Positions 7,188 through 15,201 of a stretch of 64,000 bases of DNA are shown piece after piece (within the stretch, counting starts at the first letter, position 1; every line of letters starts with the position of its first letter). The DNA is from Nitrospirota bacterium. Lineage in GTDB: Bacteria; Nitrospirota; UBA9217. Made by a program: the position numbers and the translations under genes. Where the stretch lies: contig CAWFSF010000006.1 in NCBI GenBank assembly GCA_963818475.1, positions 896,001 through 960,000 of the forward strand, read 5' to 3'. The notes beneath the pieces are model-generated. The model worked only from the letters and a program-made list of their open reading frames with translations. It was not told the DNA's origin and searched no databases.

Positions 7188-7223
7188 ACAATCTTGGGGA
7201 CATCCTATAGCCCCCTTGTCAAG
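7188..7223. repeat. 36-bp motif ACAATCTTGGGGACAT-N-TGTCAAG (copy 1; copy 2 at 11046-11081)
   Basis: First 16 nt and last 7 nt are identical between 7188-7223 and 11046-11081; CAATCTTGGGGAC also recurs at 7227-7239. Confidence 0.8.
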
Positions 7224-7263
7224 TGGCAATCTTGGGGACGTTGTTACTTACATTGCAAAACAC

Positions 7264-7298: not shown

Positions 7299-8291
7299 AT
7301 GCCGCGTCACGCTCGCTTAGACGCCCCCGGCGCCTTGCACCACATCATGGTCCGGGGGATCGATAAGTCAAACATCTTTCGCGATGCAGAGGACAAAGCC
7401 CGCTTTCTTGAGCGTCTTGGGCAAAACGTTCAGGGCTCCAAATGTTCAATATACGCCTGGGTGCTCATGGACAACCATGTTCACCTGCTATTCCGAAGCG
7501 GCCAAGACGGCATCTCAGCCGTCATGAGAAAACTCCTTACCTGGTACGCCCAATACTTTAACCGCAGGCACGGCCGGAAGGGGCATCTGTTCGAAAACCG
7601 GTACAAATCCATCCTCTGCGACGAAGACAACTATCTCCTTGCCCTTGTCCGCTACATCCATCTTAATCCCGTTCGAGCAAAAATCATCCAGACCATGGCA
7701 GAGATGGACAAATACCCCTGGAGCGGCCATCGTGCCGTGATAGAAAAGGCAAAGTACCCGTGGATGGACACGGCAACAGTATTGTCACAGTTCGGAGGCA
7801 CGAAAAGAAAAGCCAGGAATGAATATCGGCGGTTTATGCAGGAGGGCATGGATCAGGGACACGATCCCCAGTTTTCCGGCGGCGGACTTGTTCGGAGCCT
7901 CGGCGGGTGGTCCAATGTCCTCTCTATGAGACGGAAAGGCCATAAGGAGGAAACGGACGAGCGGATCCTTGGAAGCGGCGATTTCGTACATCAAGTCATA
8001 AAAGAAGCGGAAGAGAAGTCGCTGCGGCAGATGAAACTCAAAAGATCGGGGCTGACCCTGATAAAGATCGTCGAGCAGGAATGTAGAAAAGGGCAGGTCA
8101 GCCGGATGGAACTGGAGAGCGGCAGCCGGCGGTCTAAAGTAAGTCAAGCGCGTGCACAGATCGCACGACGCGGCATGAAAGAGCTCGGCCTTTCGGCCGC
8201 AGAGGTTGCGCGACATCTTGGCGTAGCCACATCAAGCATAACGCGGGCAGTTAATAAAATCGAGATTCGAGATACAATGCAACGTAAGTAA
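7299..8291 (+). CDS. REP-associated tyrosine transposase (RAYT, Y1_Tnp HUH) with C-terminal HTH
   Basis: MPRHARLDAPGALHHIMVRG, LMDNHVHLL (HUH), RYIHLNPVRA, YPWS, C-terminal HTH (LSAAEVARHLG). Confidence 0.9.
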   Translation: MPRHARLDAPGALHHIMVRGIDKSNIFRDAEDKARFLERLGQNVQGSKCSIYAWVLMDNHVHLLFRSGQDGISAVMRKLLTWYAQYFNRRHGRKGHLFENRYKSILCDEDNYLLALVRYIHLNPVRAKIIQTMAEMDKYPWSGHRAVIEKAKYPWMDTATVLSQFGGTKRKARNEYRRFMQEGMDQGHDPQFSGGGLVRSLGGWSNVLSMRRKGHKEETDERILGSGDFVHQVIKEAEEKSLRQMKLKRSGLTLIKIVEQECRKGQVSRMELESGSRRSKVSQARAQIARRGMKELGLSAAEVARHLGVATSSITRAVNKIEIRDTMQRK

Positions 8292-8907: not shown

Positions 8908-9308
8908 GAGCGAACTGCGGGATAATGAGACGTTCGCCAGGGCGCAGGGCGGGCGACATGTACGGACCTGGCGGCGGTCCAATGGCAACAGGAAAGGTCA
9001 TAGGTAAAGGACGACGGACTGGAGCCGCGATGTCGACATCGAGTCGCAAACGAGCGGAAGAGAAGTCAGGCGGCACAGGGAACTCGAACAGCGGGGCTGA
9101 CGCGGACAAACTCGACGGAGCGAGGAATGTAGCAAGGCCTCGTCAGCCGGCTGCGGGAGGCGAATCCCGACGGTCCAGGTACGTCAGGCCGCTCAGGGAG
9201 CAGACGCTTCTTGAAGGACTCGCATTCGGCCGGCAAAGCCCGCGCCATCGAGCCTTATCAAAACCGTATCGGGTTCCCCTGGCAAAGGAACGCTCCATTA
9301 GATGTTGT
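8908..9308. other. ~400-bp nested inverted-repeat element (structured ncRNA, MITE or attC-like site)
   Basis: Paired segments 8923-8935/9288-9300, 8936-8942/9277-9283, 8962-8971/9175-9184 and 9095-9102/9141-9148; palindrome at 9028-9041. Confidence 0.5.
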
Positions 9309-9357
9309 CTGGTTTTGATGTCATAACGTGCATTGGCTGATCGACTGATTGCACGCA

Positions 9358-10345
9358 TGCGCTCCAGGACATCCTGCCGGAGATGACGCTAGCGATTCAT
9401 ACCGGTTCCTGGCTTTACTCCGCATCGCACCGTTGTTGGTATCTTCGGTCATTGCTCGCTCGAGTGATACGACTCACTCGGCGGGGGAAAAAACAGTTTG
9501 TGGCGTCTGCAGCACGGTTCACCGGACCTTTTACGATCATAAGATCAAGCGGGTCCGTGATCTTTCTAATGGCGATGCCCGCATCTATCTGGAACTACCG
9601 GTACGACGAGTCCAGTGCCGGAGGTGCGGTAAGGTGAAACAAGAGAAGCTGGCGTTTCTGGCAGACAGTCCGTTTTATACCAAGCGCTTTGCCTTCTATA
9701 TCGGCAAGCGGTGCAGCACCTCAACGATCAAGGATGTTGCCAAAGAGTTTCATCTTGACCGAAGAGCCGTCAAAGAACTCGAAATGCAGTACATGCGGGA
9801 GAAGCTTCGTCGGGCTGGAAACCCCGGACCGAAAGTTATCGGTATCGACGAAATCTCGATCCGCAAGGGCCATACGTACCGGATCGTAGTCAGCGACCTG
9901 GAGCGGCGGCGGCCAATCTGGTTCGGAGGTGAAGACCGCTCGGAAGAAAGCCTAAACTGCTTCTTCGACGAGTTGGGGCCGAAAAAGGCTAGCAAAATAC
10001 GCCTTGCGGTCATGGACATGTGGAAGCCTTTTGAAAAGTCCACACGTCAAGAAAGCTCCGCAGGCAGCCATTCTCTACGACAAGTTCCATATCATAAGGC
10101 ACCTGAACGATGCCTTGGACAAAATTAGAAAGAGCGAATATGCCAGACTGACCGGCAACAGTCGTAAGTTCATCAAGGGTCAGAAATATACGCTTCTCTC
10201 GCATCGCGAGAATCTTACGACGGATGGGAGAAGATCGTTAAAGACGCTTTTGACTGCTAACAAGCGGCTAAACACTGCCTATATCCTTAAAGAGGAGTTC
10301 GGGCAGCTCTGGGACTATCAGTCAGAAGCCTGGGCCAGAAAGTAA
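9358..10345 (+). pseudogene. ISL3-family transposase, frameshifted and 3'-truncated
   Basis: CxxC zinc-finger motifs (CGVC, CRRC), IGIDEISIRKGHTY, VMDMWKPF, YDKFHIIRHLNDALD; ends abruptly at 10345. Confidence 0.9.
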
Positions 10346-10751
10346 AATCCTATTTGGTTCGAATCTGAAACGGATCCGTTGGCGTCAGATAACCAAATTA
10401 GGGAGGCAGAAAAACGATTAAAATTAAAATTTTCGATTGAATATGCTCAATTTTTAAAAATTATGGCGGCGGCTATTTTGCATTCGTCAATGTTTTTTCT
10501 GTTGATCCCACCAGTGAGTGGGACATAGTAAAACGTAATTCGAACATCATAGGAAAACCGACTTCCTTGCCATTCCAGACGATGAATCAGGCGGTTATTA
10601 TGGTTTTATAGTAACTAACAATGTTCGTGAATCAAAGATTGTGTACTTCGAATTTGAAGAGGGTAAGGTATTGCGTGAGCCGGTTTATGAAAATTTGTTT
10701 GACTATCTTGTCAAGGTAGGATGTAGAAAAAACGGCGAAACAAAGGAATAA
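10346..10751 (+). pseudogene. Orphan SMI1/KNR4 (SUKH) immunity protein, 5'-truncated, two frameshifts (not in ORF track)
   Basis: Manual translation: NPIWFESETDPLASDNQIREAEKRLKLKFSIEYAQFLK/YGGGYFAFVNVFSV.../DFLAIPDDESGGYYGF...IVYFEFEEG...YENLFDYL. Confidence 0.8.
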
Positions 10752-10786
10752 CGTTGGAGGGCTAATGGGGTTGTTTTGGCTCAGCG

Positions 10787-11045
10787 TGAATTGGACTTTC
10801 AGCCGATTTGAGATAAACTATCTCGAACGGAGGAAGGTCCATGCGAAAAAAGCGTCACAATTACACACCCGAGGAGAAGGTTGCGATCCTCAAGCGTCAT
10901 CTGGTCGAACAGGTCCCGATCTCAGACCTATGCGACAAGTATCAGTTGCAACCAACGGTCTTCTGCCACTGGCAGAAGCAGTTCTTTGAAAACGGTGCGG
11001 CAGCCTTCACTCAAGGCAAGGATCCCAAGCGCCAAGAAACCCAGC
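10787..11045 (+). pseudogene. IS3-family left end and truncated orfA
   Basis: MRKKRHNYTPEEKVAILKRHL...LCDKYQLQPTVFCHWQKQFFENG (HTH_Tnp_1-like) from 10841; the sequence changes at the motif starting 11046; left boundary approximate. Confidence 0.8.
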
Positions 11046-11081
11046 ACAATCTTGGGGACATACTATATAGCTCCTGTCAAG

Positions 11082-11378
11082 AGACCCTTTATTTTGCATG
11101 ATTTTCAATAAGATAATTTTCTGCATCAACTAAGAACACAGTTTTCCTTCCGGCATTCCTGCCGCTATCGCTTTATCGGCGAGTCTCTCGCATTCAGGCG
11201 AACGACGGCTTAATCGTTATATCTATCCGGCGTGCATGGCCGCCAAGAATACCTTATCCAGATTCCATCGTTCAAACGAGAGGCACTGTATTGTCCCGCA
11301 CGAGGTCAACTGCCCTCAACGTTGATGCTCGGGCTCTTGCCGAAATCGTTTTTGTGCTTCAGGATCATGCCGCTTTTT
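11082..11378 (-). ncRNA. Candidate bridge/seek RNA in the downstream non-coding end of the IS110
   Basis: Minus-strand ATCAACGTT (11318-11326) equals the left target flank (12805-12813). GGGACAATAC (11288-11297) is approximately the reverse complement of the right flank. A GAGG/CCTC stem separates them. RNA boundaries are unknown. Confidence 0.6.
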
Positions 11379-12660
11379 TCAGCGTTTTCGGATCCTCCTG
11401 CTTGAGATATTTTGGATCGAAGATTCTTTCTTCTTCATCAGCGTCCATGCGATGATCAAGAGTTTTGCGGCGAGCTTGACACGCATCTTTGTGCCGATCC
11501 CTTTCTCCCGCCCGGCCTTTGAGCTTGTTCGTAAAGTAGGCGATGAAGTCCTTGTTCTTGGCGAGGCGATAAGCGCCGCCTGATACAGTCCATACCGGAG
11601 GTCGGCCTTACCCTGTTTGGAGATGACCGGTATCGCGCTGTTTGACTTCTTGCCGCTCCGGTTCGCGCAAAGGCCAAGACCGGCCATTTTCAAGACCTGC
11701 TTCGCGTCGTAAACCGCTGAGGATTACCGATGGCCCCCAGGACTTTCGAAGAGATATCCGGCCCGAATCCCGGAATGCTCAGAAGGTACGTATACTCGGG
11801 AAACTCCAGGCAAGCATCCTCGATCTTGTCTTCCACTGACTTGATGCTTTGGCGAAGCTGCTTCAAACTGTCCACCATGACCTGCGCTTCGAAAAAAGGC
11901 CTCTCCATGGTGACAGATGGATCAACCGCGGCCCTCCAGATCTTGCCACCTTGCGGCCCTTGGATAGCTCATTGTGCCCGGCGCGACGGTACGGCAGAAG
12001 TCATCGTATTCCATGCCAGCGATCTCCGACGGATCGAGGCATTCCCTCACTACTGCCAGGGTTTCCGAGGGACCATAGTGTTGGTCCAGCTCGGGAAATA
12101 CTGCGCGAGGAGTTGGTTGCGAATGCACGCGCTTAAGCCGTGTTCCCGTTTCTTCAGCCGCCGTTTAAGCGCGTTGAGTATACGTACGTTCCGCAGCGTC
12201 ATCAGGGGGTATTCGTAAAACAGGCACTTTCCCTGGGAGATGAGATCGGCGACATTTGCAGCGTCTTTAACGTCATGCTTGTCCCAGCGGCCGTCCAGAA
12301 GCGGCCAGTTGTTCTTGACCGCGACGCCTCCCACAAGAACAACCATGTGCCCGCATTTGATCAGATGCTCCGCCAGGGGCTTGTGATAGTTTGCTGTCGG
12401 CTCGATGCCGAAAACGACTACCGTCAGGCTGTATTGAACTTTTATTCGCTCGACATAAGCGAGCAGCTTTTGAAAGCCTTCAAGCGTATTGTCAAAAACC
12501 AGATTCTTAACCAGAGTTTTGCCACGTGCCGTGCCGAAAAAAGCGTTATGTTTTTCCTTAGCCGCATCAATGCCGACGATCAAATGCTTATCCGAACCGC
12601 GAATCTCTTTCTTCAGTTGAAGAAACTGCTCAAGTCTGATATCATCTACATAGTTCTATA
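11379..12660 (-). pseudogene. IS110-family recombinase (DEDD RuvC + Tnp20), multiple frameshifts
   Basis: LIVGIDAAKEKH, FGIEPTANYH, KHDVKDAANVA, LLSIPGFGP, AGLGL...SGK, ISKQGKADLRYGLYQAA; RBS AGGAGG at ~12665-12670. Confidence 0.9.
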
Positions 12661-12831
12661 GAAGCCTCCTGTCTCTTGAATTTAGTTCCGTCATAAACTA
12701 ATTCTTAGCAAGAGGTTTCTGTTTTGGGTAGCTTATGAAAAAATATTCTTTCAGCTATACTGCTTGATTCACCTATGCTCTTTCTACTATACTTTCTACT
12801 ATATAACGTTGATACCTAGCAAGCATTTAGC

Positions 12832-12952
12832 TTGACAAACCCTACCCTATTTAAAATCACCCCATGCCACGCCAAGCGAGACTCGACGTACCCGGAGCCC
12901 TGTGGGGGCATTGGGGTCACTGAGATACAATGCAACATAAGTAACAACGTCC
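12832..12952 (+). mobile_element. Internally deleted second RAYT element (mini-RAYT)
   Basis: TTGACA at 12832; ATG 12864 encodes MPRQARLDVPGAL (RAYT N-terminus); then GGGGGCATTGGGGTCAC; 12922-12952 matches the RAYT right end 8269-8299 at 30/31 nt. Confidence 0.8.
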
Positions 12953-13180
12953 GTACGCAGTAACAACTGATTATCTTGCGAGTTCAAGTCCCGTCCGAGG
13001 AATTGTCCGTACACCTCGATAGCACGAGGGAGCGGCATCTGAGCAATCGGGACGTATGGGATTTCCCCAAGGTAACCTATAACGCTGATCGGATCCTGCA
13101 ACTGTTGAGACCCCGCCCCACCATAGCCCTTTCCGAAAAAAAGCTTGCAACAACTCAGTAAAATCAGTAATATACACCTC

Positions 13181-13819
13181 GTGAAAAAAATACAGGATTA
13201 CTTCAAAAAATACTTCATTACCGGGCTGCTCGTGCTCATCCCGATCTGGGCGACCTACTATGTGCTGTCAGGCCTGCTGGGGATCATCGACGGGATGCTG
13301 GGCGATTTGCCGGGATACTTGCTGGGACTGAAGTTCCCGGGGCTCGGCATCATCACGCTGATCCTGTTCGTGCTGTTCATCGGCGTCCTCTCCGCCAACT
13401 ATATCGGCAAGAACCTGGTCAGCTACAGCGATTCCATGATGCAACGAGTCCCGTTGGTGCGCGGTGTCTATTCCACCATGAAGAAGATCATGGATACCTT
13501 TTCCATGAAGCAGAACTTCCATGGCGTCGGACTGGTCGAATATCCCCGGAAGGGCTGTTACAGCGTAGGATTCATCACCGGCGGCCTTCAGGGTGAGGAA
13601 TTGGGTCTCACCGGCAGGTTTATGACGGTCTTTGTTCCTACCACCCCGAACCCCACAGCGGGTTTTCTTCTTCTCCTCCCCGAGACGGAGGTGCACCGGC
13701 TCAATATGTCCGTTGATGAGGGCATGAAGTTCATTGTCTCTCTCGGGCTGGTGTCACTGAGCGAGATTCAGGCCAATAAGCTTAAGAACAACGTTTGCAC
13801 TGAGGCTTCCAAAGTATGA
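13181..13819 (+). CDS. DUF502 family membrane protein
   Basis: FITGLLVLIP, VEYPRKG, VFVPTTPNPTAGFL; GTG start at 13181. Confidence 0.85.
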   Translation: MKKIQDYFKKYFITGLLVLIPIWATYYVLSGLLGIIDGMLGDLPGYLLGLKFPGLGIITLILFVLFIGVLSANYIGKNLVSYSDSMMQRVPLVRGVYSTMKKIMDTFSMKQNFHGVGLVEYPRKGCYSVGFITGGLQGEELGLTGRFMTVFVPTTPNPTAGFLLLLPETEVHRLNMSVDEGMKFIVSLGLVSLSEIQANKLKNNVCTEASKV

Positions 13820-15201
13820 AACCGACCGTGGTGATCCTTGCAGCAGGGCTGGGGACGAGAATGAAGTCCGGCCTTGCCAAAGCCCTGCACCCTCTTGCGG
13901 GACGGCCGCTGATCCAGCATGTTCTGGAGGCTGTTTCGGGGCTCGCTGCTGAACGGACCGTTGTCGTGCTGGGCCACCAGGCCGACCACGTGCGGAAAAT
14001 AGTGGAAGGGTACGGCGCAACCATAGCGCTCCAGGCAGAGCAGCTCGGCACGGGACATGCGGTGATGCAGGCACACGAGGTCATTGCTGCGGCGAAAGGA
14101 CCGGTCCTGATCCTCTGCGCTGATACGCCGCTGCTCACCACGACCACGCTGCGTTCGATCGTAGATCTCCATGCCGCGTCCCGCGCTGCGGTGACGGTCA
14201 TGACGGCCGTGGTCCTGGATCCCTTCGGGTACGGCAGGGTCGTGCGGAGCAAGGGCGGCATCACGCGCATTGTCGAGGAGAAGGACGCCACCACGGCCCA
14301 GAAAAAGATCATTGAAGTGAATGCCGGGATCTACTGTTTTGAACAACGGTTCCTGCTGGAAGCGCTGAAGTCCATCGGAAATAAGAACGCACAGGGTGAA
14401 TACTATCTGCCGGATACGATAACGCTGGCGCGGAAAAAACGACTCGTTGTGGCGGGCCTGGTCTGCGAAGACCCTGATGAGGTCATGGGGGTCAATACGC
14501 GGGTCGACCTGAGCCGCGCGGAACATATCATGCGTTCCCGGATCAACCGCGCCTGGATGCTGGCAGGCGTGACCATGCTCGACCCCGGCGCGACCTTCAT
14601 CGGGAGCGAGGTCACCTTGGGCCGCGACTGTATCCTGTATCCGAACGTCAGACTCGAAGGAAAAACAACGATCGGTCAGGGATGCACGGTCTTTCCAGGC
14701 ACCCGGATCGTGGACAGTACCATCGGCAATGCAGTGACGGTCAAGGACTGCTCCGTGATCGAAGAGAGCGCGATCGACGACAGCGCTTCGGTGGGGCCCT
14801 TCGCTCATCTCCGGCCCGGTTCGGTCATCGGCGCCCGGGCCAGGATCGGCAACTTTGTCGAGATAAAGAAAACATCCATTGGCGAGGGCAGCAAGGCGAA
14901 TCATCTCGCCTATATCGGCGACGCCACCGTGGGAAAAGACGTGAACATCGGCGCCGGCGTGATCACCTGCAATTATGACGGTTTCGATAAATTTGCGACG
15001 ATCATCGAGGACGGAGTATTTGTCGGCAGCGACAGCCAACTGGTGGCGCCGGTCCGGATCGGACGCGGGGCGCTTATCGCCGCAGGAGCCACGATCACGC
15101 GCGATGTCCCGGCTGATGCCCTGGCCATCAGCCGCCCGCCGCAGGACATACGCGAAGGTTTTGCCGGAAGGCGAAGGAAAATGAAGCAAAAAAAGAAGTG
15201 A
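13816..15201 (+). CDS. glmU: Bifunctional UDP-GlcNAc pyrophosphorylase/glucosamine-1-P acetyltransferase
   Basis: ILAAGLGTRMKS, QLGTGHAV, GEYYLPD, VGPFAHLRPG, GNFVEIKK, hexapeptide repeats. Confidence 0.97.
   Translation: MKPTVVILAAGLGTRMKSGLAKALHPLAGRPLIQHVLEAVSGLAAERTVVVLGHQADHVRKIVEGYGATIALQAEQLGTGHAVMQAHEVIAAAKGPVLILCADTPLLTTTTLRSIVDLHAASRAAVTVMTAVVLDPFGYGRVVRSKGGITRIVEEKDATTAQKKIIEVNAGIYCFEQRFLLEALKSIGNKNAQGEYYLPDTITLARKKRLVVAGLVCEDPDEVMGVNTRVDLSRAEHIMRSRINRAWMLAGVTMLDPGATFIGSEVTLGRDCILYPNVRLEGKTTIGQGCTVFPGTRIVDSTIGNAVTVKDCSVIEESAIDDSASVGPFAHLRPGSVIGARARIGNFVEIKKTSIGEGSKANHLAYIGDATVGKDVNIGAGVITCNYDGFDKFATIIEDGVFVGSDSQLVAPVRIGRGALIAAGATITRDVPADALAISRPPQDIREGFAGRRRKMKQKKK

Follow-up and report, generated by a model that had tools for sequence, protein, structure and literature searches.

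A fossil IS110-family element whose downstream non-coding end carries a predicted bridge RNA gene directed at the inverted repeat of Y1/RAYT-like units

The 64,000-nt stretch analysed here (positions 896,001 to 960,000 of contig CAWFSF010000006.1 in the Nitrospirota bacterium assembly GCA_963818475.1; C6:896001-960000 of our genome G000, hereafter the window) contains a damaged insertion sequence of the IS110 family at 11058-12807 on the minus strand. A preliminary description of the locus had proposed that the non-coding region behind the transposase encodes guides matching both flanks of the element, as a bridge RNA aimed at the ends of a RAYT element would. The question raised by the locus is whether such an RNA is encoded there and, if so, which site it specifies and by what geometry. 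The results showed that all of the strings listed in that description are present in the window, and that its idea was right in substance and wrong in geometry. It is highly probable that 11058-12807 is a fossil IS110 copy that moved by bridge-RNA-guided recombination, with a two-loop RNA of ~160 nt encoded after the transposase and a target in the inverted repeat of a Y1 unit.

The boundaries of the element were set by comparison with its relatives. The same genome holds a sister element, 70% identical and present in two full copies that are 98.5% alike, one of them at C6:868560-870295. Its 430-aa transposase has more than 5,237 homologues at E ≤1e-30 (7,999 candidates were scored). Species genomes were scanned as well and yielded 80 loci with 51-97% identity, mostly in metagenome-assembled genomes of Nitrospirota and Desulfobacterota; the tail downstream of the gene was recognisable by blastn in 72 of them, and 70 were long enough to be aligned with the two local elements, giving 72 rows. 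The sister-element junctions read ..AACAAC-GT|TATATATC.. on the left and ..TATAGGAT|GT-CCCC.. on the right, and copies of the target that carry no insertion, also in this genome, read ..AACAAC-GT-CCCCAAG... Because the sister junctions and the uninterrupted sites read in this way, the empty site is left target (LT)-GT-right target (RT) and the element duplicates GT only. The sister and related-locus junctions place the first base of the element at 12805 (TATATAG..) and its last base at 11060 (..TATAGTAT), and the only bases common to both junctions are GT, at 12807-12806 and 11059-11058. Insertion is thus site-specific, with no duplication beyond the shared core dinucleotide, as in IS110 elements. 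The ends comprise the following features:

11058-12807, minus strand: whole IS110-family element with both core copies, from junction comparison.
11060-12805, minus strand: element body of 1,746 bp (1,748 bp with one core copy), from the sister element and the 70 foreign loci.
12808-12813, minus strand: LT ATCAAC, lying in an inverted repeat that belongs to a Y1/RAYT-like remnant; it matches bases 1-6 of the left target guide exactly, with the junction placed by family comparison.
12806-12807, minus strand: left copy of the core GT, the sole overlap of left junction, right junction and uninterrupted sites.
12799-12805, minus strand: left-end tip TATATAG, which serves as right donor half-site and forms one of the two arms of a short subterminal inverted repeat (direct reading and family comparison).
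11060-11070, minus strand: right-end tip CTATATA plus GTAT, which supplies the second inverted-repeat arm and serves as left donor half-site (direct reading and family junctions).
11054-11059, minus strand: right copy of the core GT (11059-11058) and RT CCCC (from 11057), from direct reading and family junctions.

The left end measures ~147 nt and the right end, the tail after the transposase, ~315 nt. The left end starts TATAT in every readable row, with TATATA in 54 of the 57 foreign rows and TATATT in the other three, and it begins ~135-141 nt before the gene in most relatives and 86-153 nt before it in some. The subterminal inverted repeat has the family consensus TATA(T/G), 4-5 bp, and reaches 7 bp in this copy; across the family it starts at the first left-end base and lies 4 nt from the right-end tip. 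A 12-bp tandem duplication (two copies of TATAGTAGAAAG) was also seen after the tip of the left end, at 12776-12805 on the minus strand; one relative (L010) has a left end that is similar in other respects but lacks it.

The preliminary description had drawn the ends with a 9-bp shared core, TACTATATA, and with a gap of 5 nt between the guide-matched halves, an architecture longer than that of IS621. The 9-mer does bracket the element and is rare, occurring exactly twice in the window (11061-11069 and 12797-12805) with a mean of 0.04 and no case of two occurrences in 100 shuffles, and GGGACAATAC from the tail is, apart from one bulged base, complementary to the right junction. However, the uninterrupted sites of the same genome read LT-GT-RT, with no gap and without TATATA between the halves; the ends of the sister element and of the foreign loci share GT only, the left starting TATATA and the right stopping ..TATAGGAT; and ACAATAC in the tail stays constant while the right-end tips vary. 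The rebuilt empty site ATCAACGTT-ATATA-GTATGTCCCC was rejected, being contradicted by those uninterrupted sites, and we give virtually no credence to a bridge RNA with this long-core geometry. TACTATATA is the left tip TATATAG.. plus a near-palindromic right tip ..CTATATAGTA rather than a core. The core is GT, and both guides overlap on it exactly as in IS621. Here and below, the layout rules of known systems are those given in parts of three papers (PMC11208160, PMC11208158 and PMC11187229), and subgroups are assigned by features.

The region behind the transposase has the structure expected of a bridge RNA:

11187-11344, minus strand: predicted bridge RNA gene with a target-binding loop and a donor-binding loop, from covariance model R1 and four covarying helices.
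11302-11317, minus strand: hairpin GAGG..CCTC capping the target-binding loop (GAGG at 11317-11314, CCTC at 11305-11302); in this second helix 100% of cells are paired and three of the four pairs show double changes.

The covariance-model check that had been proposed for this region was run, and the model matched this copy over its full length (1-168) at 11344-11187 with 119.7 bits; the other complete matches score 137-155 bits. In this structure of four helices, each of the two loops, target and donor, lies between a basal stem and a hairpin. RNAalifold alone returned the two hairpins and a guide-guide complementarity only, and the pairs of both basal stems were placed manually before the test. 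This covered all of the 68 distinct references except L012, L045 and L088, 65 sequences in total, and showed 90.6% of cells paired, compared with 30-48% when the partners were slid. Double changes were found in 16 of the 29 pairs of the four helices, and the number of doubly changed cells was 147 against 48.8 ± 6.7 in shuffles, none of 500 reaching the observed value. The octamer GCAAGAGC (11340-11333), floated earlier as a weak candidate for a donor guide, proved to be the 5′ strand of the target loop's basal stem. A search of Rfam 15 at E up to 1 over window positions 9000-15000 assigned the element to no family, folding the tail as a single sequence gave no information on its structure (z-score 0.05), and a consensus promoter and terminator scan of the minus strand gave nothing exceeding shuffles. 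In a search of sequencing runs, no RNA run was listed for this stretch and the shares of the DNA runs were at most 0.12, which speaks neither for nor against expression. Two of the references left out, L045 and L088, have an insertion in the donor-loop region and a second, weak model match of 41-48 bits just upstream of the main one (L045:1436-1552 and L088:2781-2885), which by its sequence might mean that the RNA gene has been partly duplicated in tandem.

The two sides of the target loop match the two flanks of the element:

11319-11326, minus strand: left target guide ATCAACGT (LT plus core), 8/8 to its own left flank and backed by the family permutation test.
11293-11297, minus strand: right target guide GGGAC, the complement of the core plus CCC, 5/5 to its own right flank; variant guides track variant flanks.

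They lie within ATCAACGTT at 11326-11318 and GGGACAATAC at 11297-11288 on the minus strand. The matches of both guides to their own flanks thus held, as did the placement of the RNA 3′ of the transposase with a left guide, a hairpin and a right guide in that order, which the structure and the flank matches support. Of GGGACAATAC as a right guide, only the GGGAC part stood; the ATAC part fell away, since ACAATAC is near-constant across the family while the right-end tips differ. The loop has the two sides of a bridge RNA target loop, a 5′ side carrying the left target plus core (8-9 nt) and a 3′ side complementary to the core plus right target (4-7 nt). On this reading, the two guides together would specify a gapless 11-bp site, ATCAAC-GT-CCC.

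Covariation of guides and flanks among homologues, suggested earlier as a check, was assessed separately on each side. For the left guide, the 8 nt preceding the left end were compared with the loop segment of the same element; the junction was found in 59 of the 72 rows, giving 48 unique pairs. The mean identity was 6.56/8 compared with 4.82 (sd 0.14) when pairs were permuted, and 3.73 compared with 2.23 over the five variable positions alone; none of 10,000 permutations reached the observed value. Fifteen of the 48 pairs were perfect and another 15 had one mismatch. Thirty distinct left-guide 8-mers were present, 15 of which fit their own flank perfectly and 20 at 7/8 or better. The own guide type was best or tied best in only 23 of the 48 pairs, so mismatches, along with a few mislocated junctions, are common. 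For the right guide, the complement of the 3′ loop segment was set against the 5 nt after the element end (..TATAGGAT) in 63 of the 72 rows (14 unique pairs), using a loosened junction pattern, as a stricter one caught only 4 of the 72 rows. The identity was 4.0/5 compared with 2.79 permuted, again with 0 of 10,000 permutations reaching it. The variant right guides ATGAC, AGGAC, AGAAC, ATTAC and GATAC are each 5/5 complementary to their own flanks, and a guide AGAC stands beside the flank GTCT by direct reading (4/5 by column reading). A single mismatch separates guide and flank in three further variant rows, namely L060, L030 and one with a GGGAC guide next to GTTCC; L023 matches at 2/5. In L015 and L023, the left guide ends in AT and the core complement of the donor loop is AT, with the core complement of the right guide still AC, which suggests from the sequence that the core dinucleotide is changed or mixed in these two.

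Could the matches between tail and flanks be features of the DNA, for instance sites bound by proteins, or target sequence copied into the element as a recombination scar, rather than guides of an RNA? The guides on both sides are short and the data hold no transcript evidence, as such an explanation would allow. However, the four helices stay paired through compensatory changes, which are expected of an RNA and not of a DNA site; the guide segments keep fixed positions in the loop and change with independent insertion sites in many lineages; and the layout mirrors that of the experimentally solved IS621 RNA, including the handshake base described below. An origin at the DNA level is therefore very improbable, and the bridge RNA interpretation is preferred.

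The second loop, at ~11260-11215, would read the ends of the element itself:

11248-11252, minus strand: candidate left donor guide GTATT (family consensus GGATG), 4/5 to the right-end tip GTAT plus G.
11215-11222, minus strand: candidate right donor guide ATATAAC (11222-11216), followed by the putative handshake base G at 11215 (direct reading).
11075-11080, minus strand: outward -35 hexamer TTGACA, kept in 57 of 66 family right ends.

In this copy, ATATAAC is complementary at 7/7 positions to the core GT plus the left tip TATAT, and the G to T change in the left donor guide parallels the change of the right end from GGAT to GTAT. In the family's variant classes (GAAT, GCAT and GTAT), the left donor guide changes along with the right tip. 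A right donor guide of 7 nt throughout the family was considered and dropped, most members having ACGTAAC beside a left end that starts GT-TATAT. In the RNAalifold prediction, the final left-guide bases of the target loop pair with positions in and just behind the right donor guide, and covariation is seen in the outer pair. The last LT base and the base after the right donor guide (columns 37 and 171) form CG in 56 sequences, AU in six, GC in two and GU in one, with nine double changes. In IS621, according to the part of PMC11208158 cited, the handshake guide pairs with the last left-target base after strand exchange; the covarying base here shows the same signature. The A at 11292, after GGGAC, is likely to be the corresponding base for the last right-end base T, by analogy with the IS621 layout, and this invariant position is uninformative either way on the handshake.

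A promoter formed at the circle junction had also been proposed, from the outward TTGACA and TATAGT. The conserved -35 hexamer supports the first half of this proposal, and the spacer to the left-end TATATA, counted with the 2-bp core, is 17 nt in this copy and in 48 of the 66 family members. TATAGT as the -10 hexamer was not upheld; judging from the sequence, TATATA is the more likely one.

Several observations weigh against the bridge RNA interpretation. Two of the nine basal-stem pairs of the target loop are broken in this copy, and its model score is the lowest among the complete matches; because of these two points, the RNA may be decaying along with the transposase. Among the 30 left-guide types, 10 fit their flank at 6/8 or less; some of these poor fits are mislocated junctions (L015, L023, L030 and L081). 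Shared ancestry of the related sequences means that the permutation values overstate independence. On the donor side, the permutation of left donor guide against right tip was not significant (871/10,000, with 7 unique pairs only), the right donor guide conserves only TAAC family-wide, and the left donor guide has a second core base that matches in no case, unlike in IS621 as described in the papers cited. Production of the RNA, its binding to the transposase and its directing of recombination would follow from the biochemistry of IS621 and ISEc21, by analogy with which they are proposed here.

The transposase had been called IS110-type and broken, and both parts of this claim were borne out:

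11386-12655, minus strand: transposase pseudogene, from Pfam matches on fragments and tblastn with the intact 430-aa sister protein.

Pfam searches of the window fragments gave PF01548 at E 5.7e-18 and PF02371 (Transposase_20) at E 2.9e-5 and 2.9e-4, and the intact sister protein gave PF01548 at E 1.8e-19 and PF02371 at E 5.9e-16. The sister protein scores 152.5 bits against NCBIfam NF033542 (IS110 RNA-guided transposase; cut-off 140), and the structures of IS621 and ISCro4 are similar to it at E 9e-14 and 1e-11, respectively, with the similarity to IS621 confined to the C-terminal part. By these sequence matches, the protein is an IS110-type transposase with a DEDD/RuvC-like domain plus Transposase_20. 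The sister transposase and its homologues measure 427-442 aa. A protein search of a plasmid collection found only relatives of <30% identity, all labelled IS110 family and without an ISfinder name.

Aligned by tblastn with the sister protein, this copy follows the frame path 3>2>3>2>1>2>1; the frame changes at least six times, stops fall within it and a start codon is missing, so that the intact transposase gene of an IS110 element is lacking; for these reasons this copy reads as a fossil. An alternative is that the copy is still active, its frame changes being assembly errors or its RNA being used in trans by the sister transposase. The ends, both loops and the parts of the junction promoter are intact, and the adjacent ISL3 gene is split too, which makes indel errors possible. 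However, at least six frame changes plus stops fall within 1.3 kb, whereas both sister copies in the same assembly are open over 430 aa; this subtype is present only once in the genome; and the left donor guide and right-end tip differ from those of the sister (GTAT compared with GGAT), so that use in trans would be mismatched. Continued activity is therefore improbable, and the copy is treated as a fossil below.

The target lies in a remnant of a second mobile element:

12806-12957, plus strand: internally deleted Y1/RAYT-like unit, with the same N-terminus and repeat context as intact 276-327-aa Y1_Tnp genes.

In this unit, the left inverted repeat is split by the insertion; the unit also contains a TTGACA and an ATG at 12864 with 13 codons (MPRQARLDVPGAL), and the right inverted repeat is at 12930-12957. 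Sites with the 9-mer AACGTCCCC are not over-represented in the genome (44 found, ~46 expected), but at least 13 of the 44 share a longer inverted-repeat context, and only this subset marks Y1 units. The context sites include five inverted pairs 60-1,070 bp apart, and the 1.07-kb pairs enclose genes of 276-327 aa that start MPR(Q/K)ARLDVPGALHH.. and have a Y1_Tnp (HuH) domain (PF01797, E 7.8e-10 and 2.6e-13). At least four near-full-length paralogues with ≥65% identity were found, plus more distant ones, each flanked by inverted repeats. The target had been named as the terminal motif of a RAYT element. It is indeed the end of a RAYT-like Y1 unit; however, the curated RAYT model REP_Tyr_transpos (NF047646) gives 63.8 bits, below its cut-off of 80, and the units are multi-copy, not the single copy per genome among arrays of repetitive extragenic palindromic (REP) sequences that marks a RAYT. 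From these sequence features, the target behaves like a multi-copy IS200-like element. A Y1 gene lies within 1.5 kb in 10 of the 80 foreign loci, on the left flank in nine.

Intact Y1 units of ~1.07 kb were seen at window 7299-8291 (plus strand), C1:262751-263731, C5:529991-530812 and C5:626541-627500, encoding proteins of 276-330 aa, some with a C-terminal helix-turn-helix (HTH), between inverted repeats of ~25 bp; short internally deleted derivatives were seen at C2:794126-794195 and C6:1941194-1941271. The intact unit at 7299-8291 carries in its repeat a 24-bp right-end remnant of the sister element. Besides its two full copies, that element has left six right-end-only remnants of 24-350 bp, all with the exact right tip: window 7202-7225 (C6:903202-903225), C1:303527-303567, C5:179161-179245, C5:609604-609855, C5:187635-187925 and C5:632872-633221. 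One of them is preceded by an inverted right tip plus target, and one begins exactly at position 1 of the bridge RNA model.

How does the element compare with the known groups of the IS110 family? As in IS621 (Durrant et al. 2024, PMC11208160; Hiraizumi et al. 2024, PMC11208158, in the parts cited), the RNA has two internal loops with guides overlapping on a 2-bp core. On the 3′ side of the target loop, ~5 nt are complementary to top-strand sequence, and each right-hand guide is followed by a handshake base; the element has only a short subterminal inverted repeat, and its transposase has DEDD and Tnp_20 domains. Unlike in IS621, the core is GT rather than CT, the transposase has 430 aa compared with 326-341 aa and is distantly similar in its C-terminal part only, and the RNA lies behind the transposase gene in a long right end. 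Whereas a bridge RNA of the IS621 kind is encoded in the left end, upstream of the gene, here the RNA is at 11344-11187 and the remains of the gene are at 12655-11386; 72 of the 80 related loci share this order.

This downstream position is that of the IS1111 group, whose members have a downstream non-coding region with a short left and a long right end (parts of PMC11208160 and PMC11187229). As in the seekRNA elements ISEc11, ISPa11 and ISKpn4 of that group (PMC11187229), the RNA region is downstream of the gene and the left end is short; a promoter would form on circularisation, insertion is site-specific without duplication, and, as with some members, the target is a repeat or the end of another transposon. 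The element might thus be a canonical IS1111-group member with a seekRNA, and its long downstream non-coding region and its end lengths agree with this. However, in the same sources IS1111 elements have subterminal repeats usually of 11-13 bp (range 7-17 bp) with extensions of 7 bp on the left and 3 bp on the right, a transposase of 330-350 aa, and a seekRNA in which the top-strand match is 5′ of the bottom-strand match (PMC11187229). Here, the repeat falls short of 11-13 bp and the terminal extensions break the 7/3-bp rule, the sister transposase is ~90 aa longer, and the order of the target matches is reversed; the bottom-strand match comes first, following the loop rules and guide order of IS621 and ISEc21 (PMC11208160; PMC11187229). 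Membership in the canonical IS1111 group is therefore unlikely. Instead, by its sequence features, the clade joins the loops and guide order of the IS621 type with the downstream position of the IS1111 type. Such a layout is not unheard of, since IS110-type elements with a downstream non-coding region are mentioned in the part of Siddiquee et al. 2024 (PMC11187229) cited here. Three of the six right-end remnants of the sister element are bracketed by two copies of the right-target sequence, the second copy preceding the remnant. A bolder reading, which we consider unlikely, is that the clade, with thousands of members in uncultured Nitrospirota and Desulfobacterota, would be a third architectural class of IS110 elements and hence a surviving intermediate stage in the translocation of the bridge RNA between element ends that has been proposed, and that the right-end remnants would be footprints of one-ended or otherwise aberrant RNA-guided reactions rather than plain deletions.

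A conserved target on another mobile or repeated element is also known from ISPpu9, ISPpu10 and ISPa11 (REP sequences), IS4321 and IS5075 (Tn21 inverted repeats) and ISEc21 (IS3 transposase genes); unlike the targets of those elements, the one described here is formed by the inverted-repeat tips that multi-copy Y1 units carry in genomes of Nitrospirota and Desulfobacterota. The right-end or RNA-only modules of this genome may be compared with the ssr9 modules of ISPpu9 (PMC12288879, in the part cited). A literature search of listings found no paper on IS110 elements homing to the ends of Y1/RAYT-like units, and the supplements of the papers cited may list the clade.

The element stands in a cluster of mobile-element remains at window 7-13 kb. 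An ISL3-family transposase at 9349-10345 (plus strand), with DDE_Tnp_ISL3, zinc ribbon and HTH domains, is split into two overlapping open reading frames (ORFs) of 259 and 113 aa and is probably another pseudogene. An HTH_Tnp_1 ORF of the IS3/IS66-type accessory N-terminus (10841-11060, plus strand; Pfam E 1.3e-7) runs into the Y1-unit repeat tip and the right flank of the IS110 element, and is probably truncated. An Rfam match to group II intron D1-D4 at 12976-13087 (plus strand) scores 22.2 bits against a gathering score of 49 (E 0.076) and is most likely due to chance.

Taken together, these results suggest the following mechanism for the element when it was intact. An RNA of ~160 nt with two internal loops would be made from the region behind the transposase gene. 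Its target loop would specify the 11-bp site given above, and its donor loop would read the joined ends of the circularised element (..TATAGTAT-GT-TATATAG..) through the left donor guide GUAU(U) and the right donor guide AUAUAAC. After strand exchange, the handshake base beside each right-hand guide would pair with the partner DNA. Circularisation would join the outward TTGACA to the left-end TATATA, creating a promoter for the transposase and the downstream RNA.

The comparison corrects the boundaries of the element, the apparent long core being an artefact of near-palindromic tips, and documents a large clade from uncultured lineages with a downstream-encoded bridge RNA that obeys the IS621 rules. 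Because it follows these rules, the programming logic of IS621 probably applies to the clade, and its ~30 natural left-guide variants with known insertion sites provide a data set on mismatch tolerance. As Y1 units carry the specified site in their terminal inverted repeat, the clade parasitises another mobile element. The finding leaves the current picture of RNA-guided transposition unchanged and adds to it a further example of a transposon family that homes to the inverted repeats of a different one, here of the Y1/RAYT-like kind.

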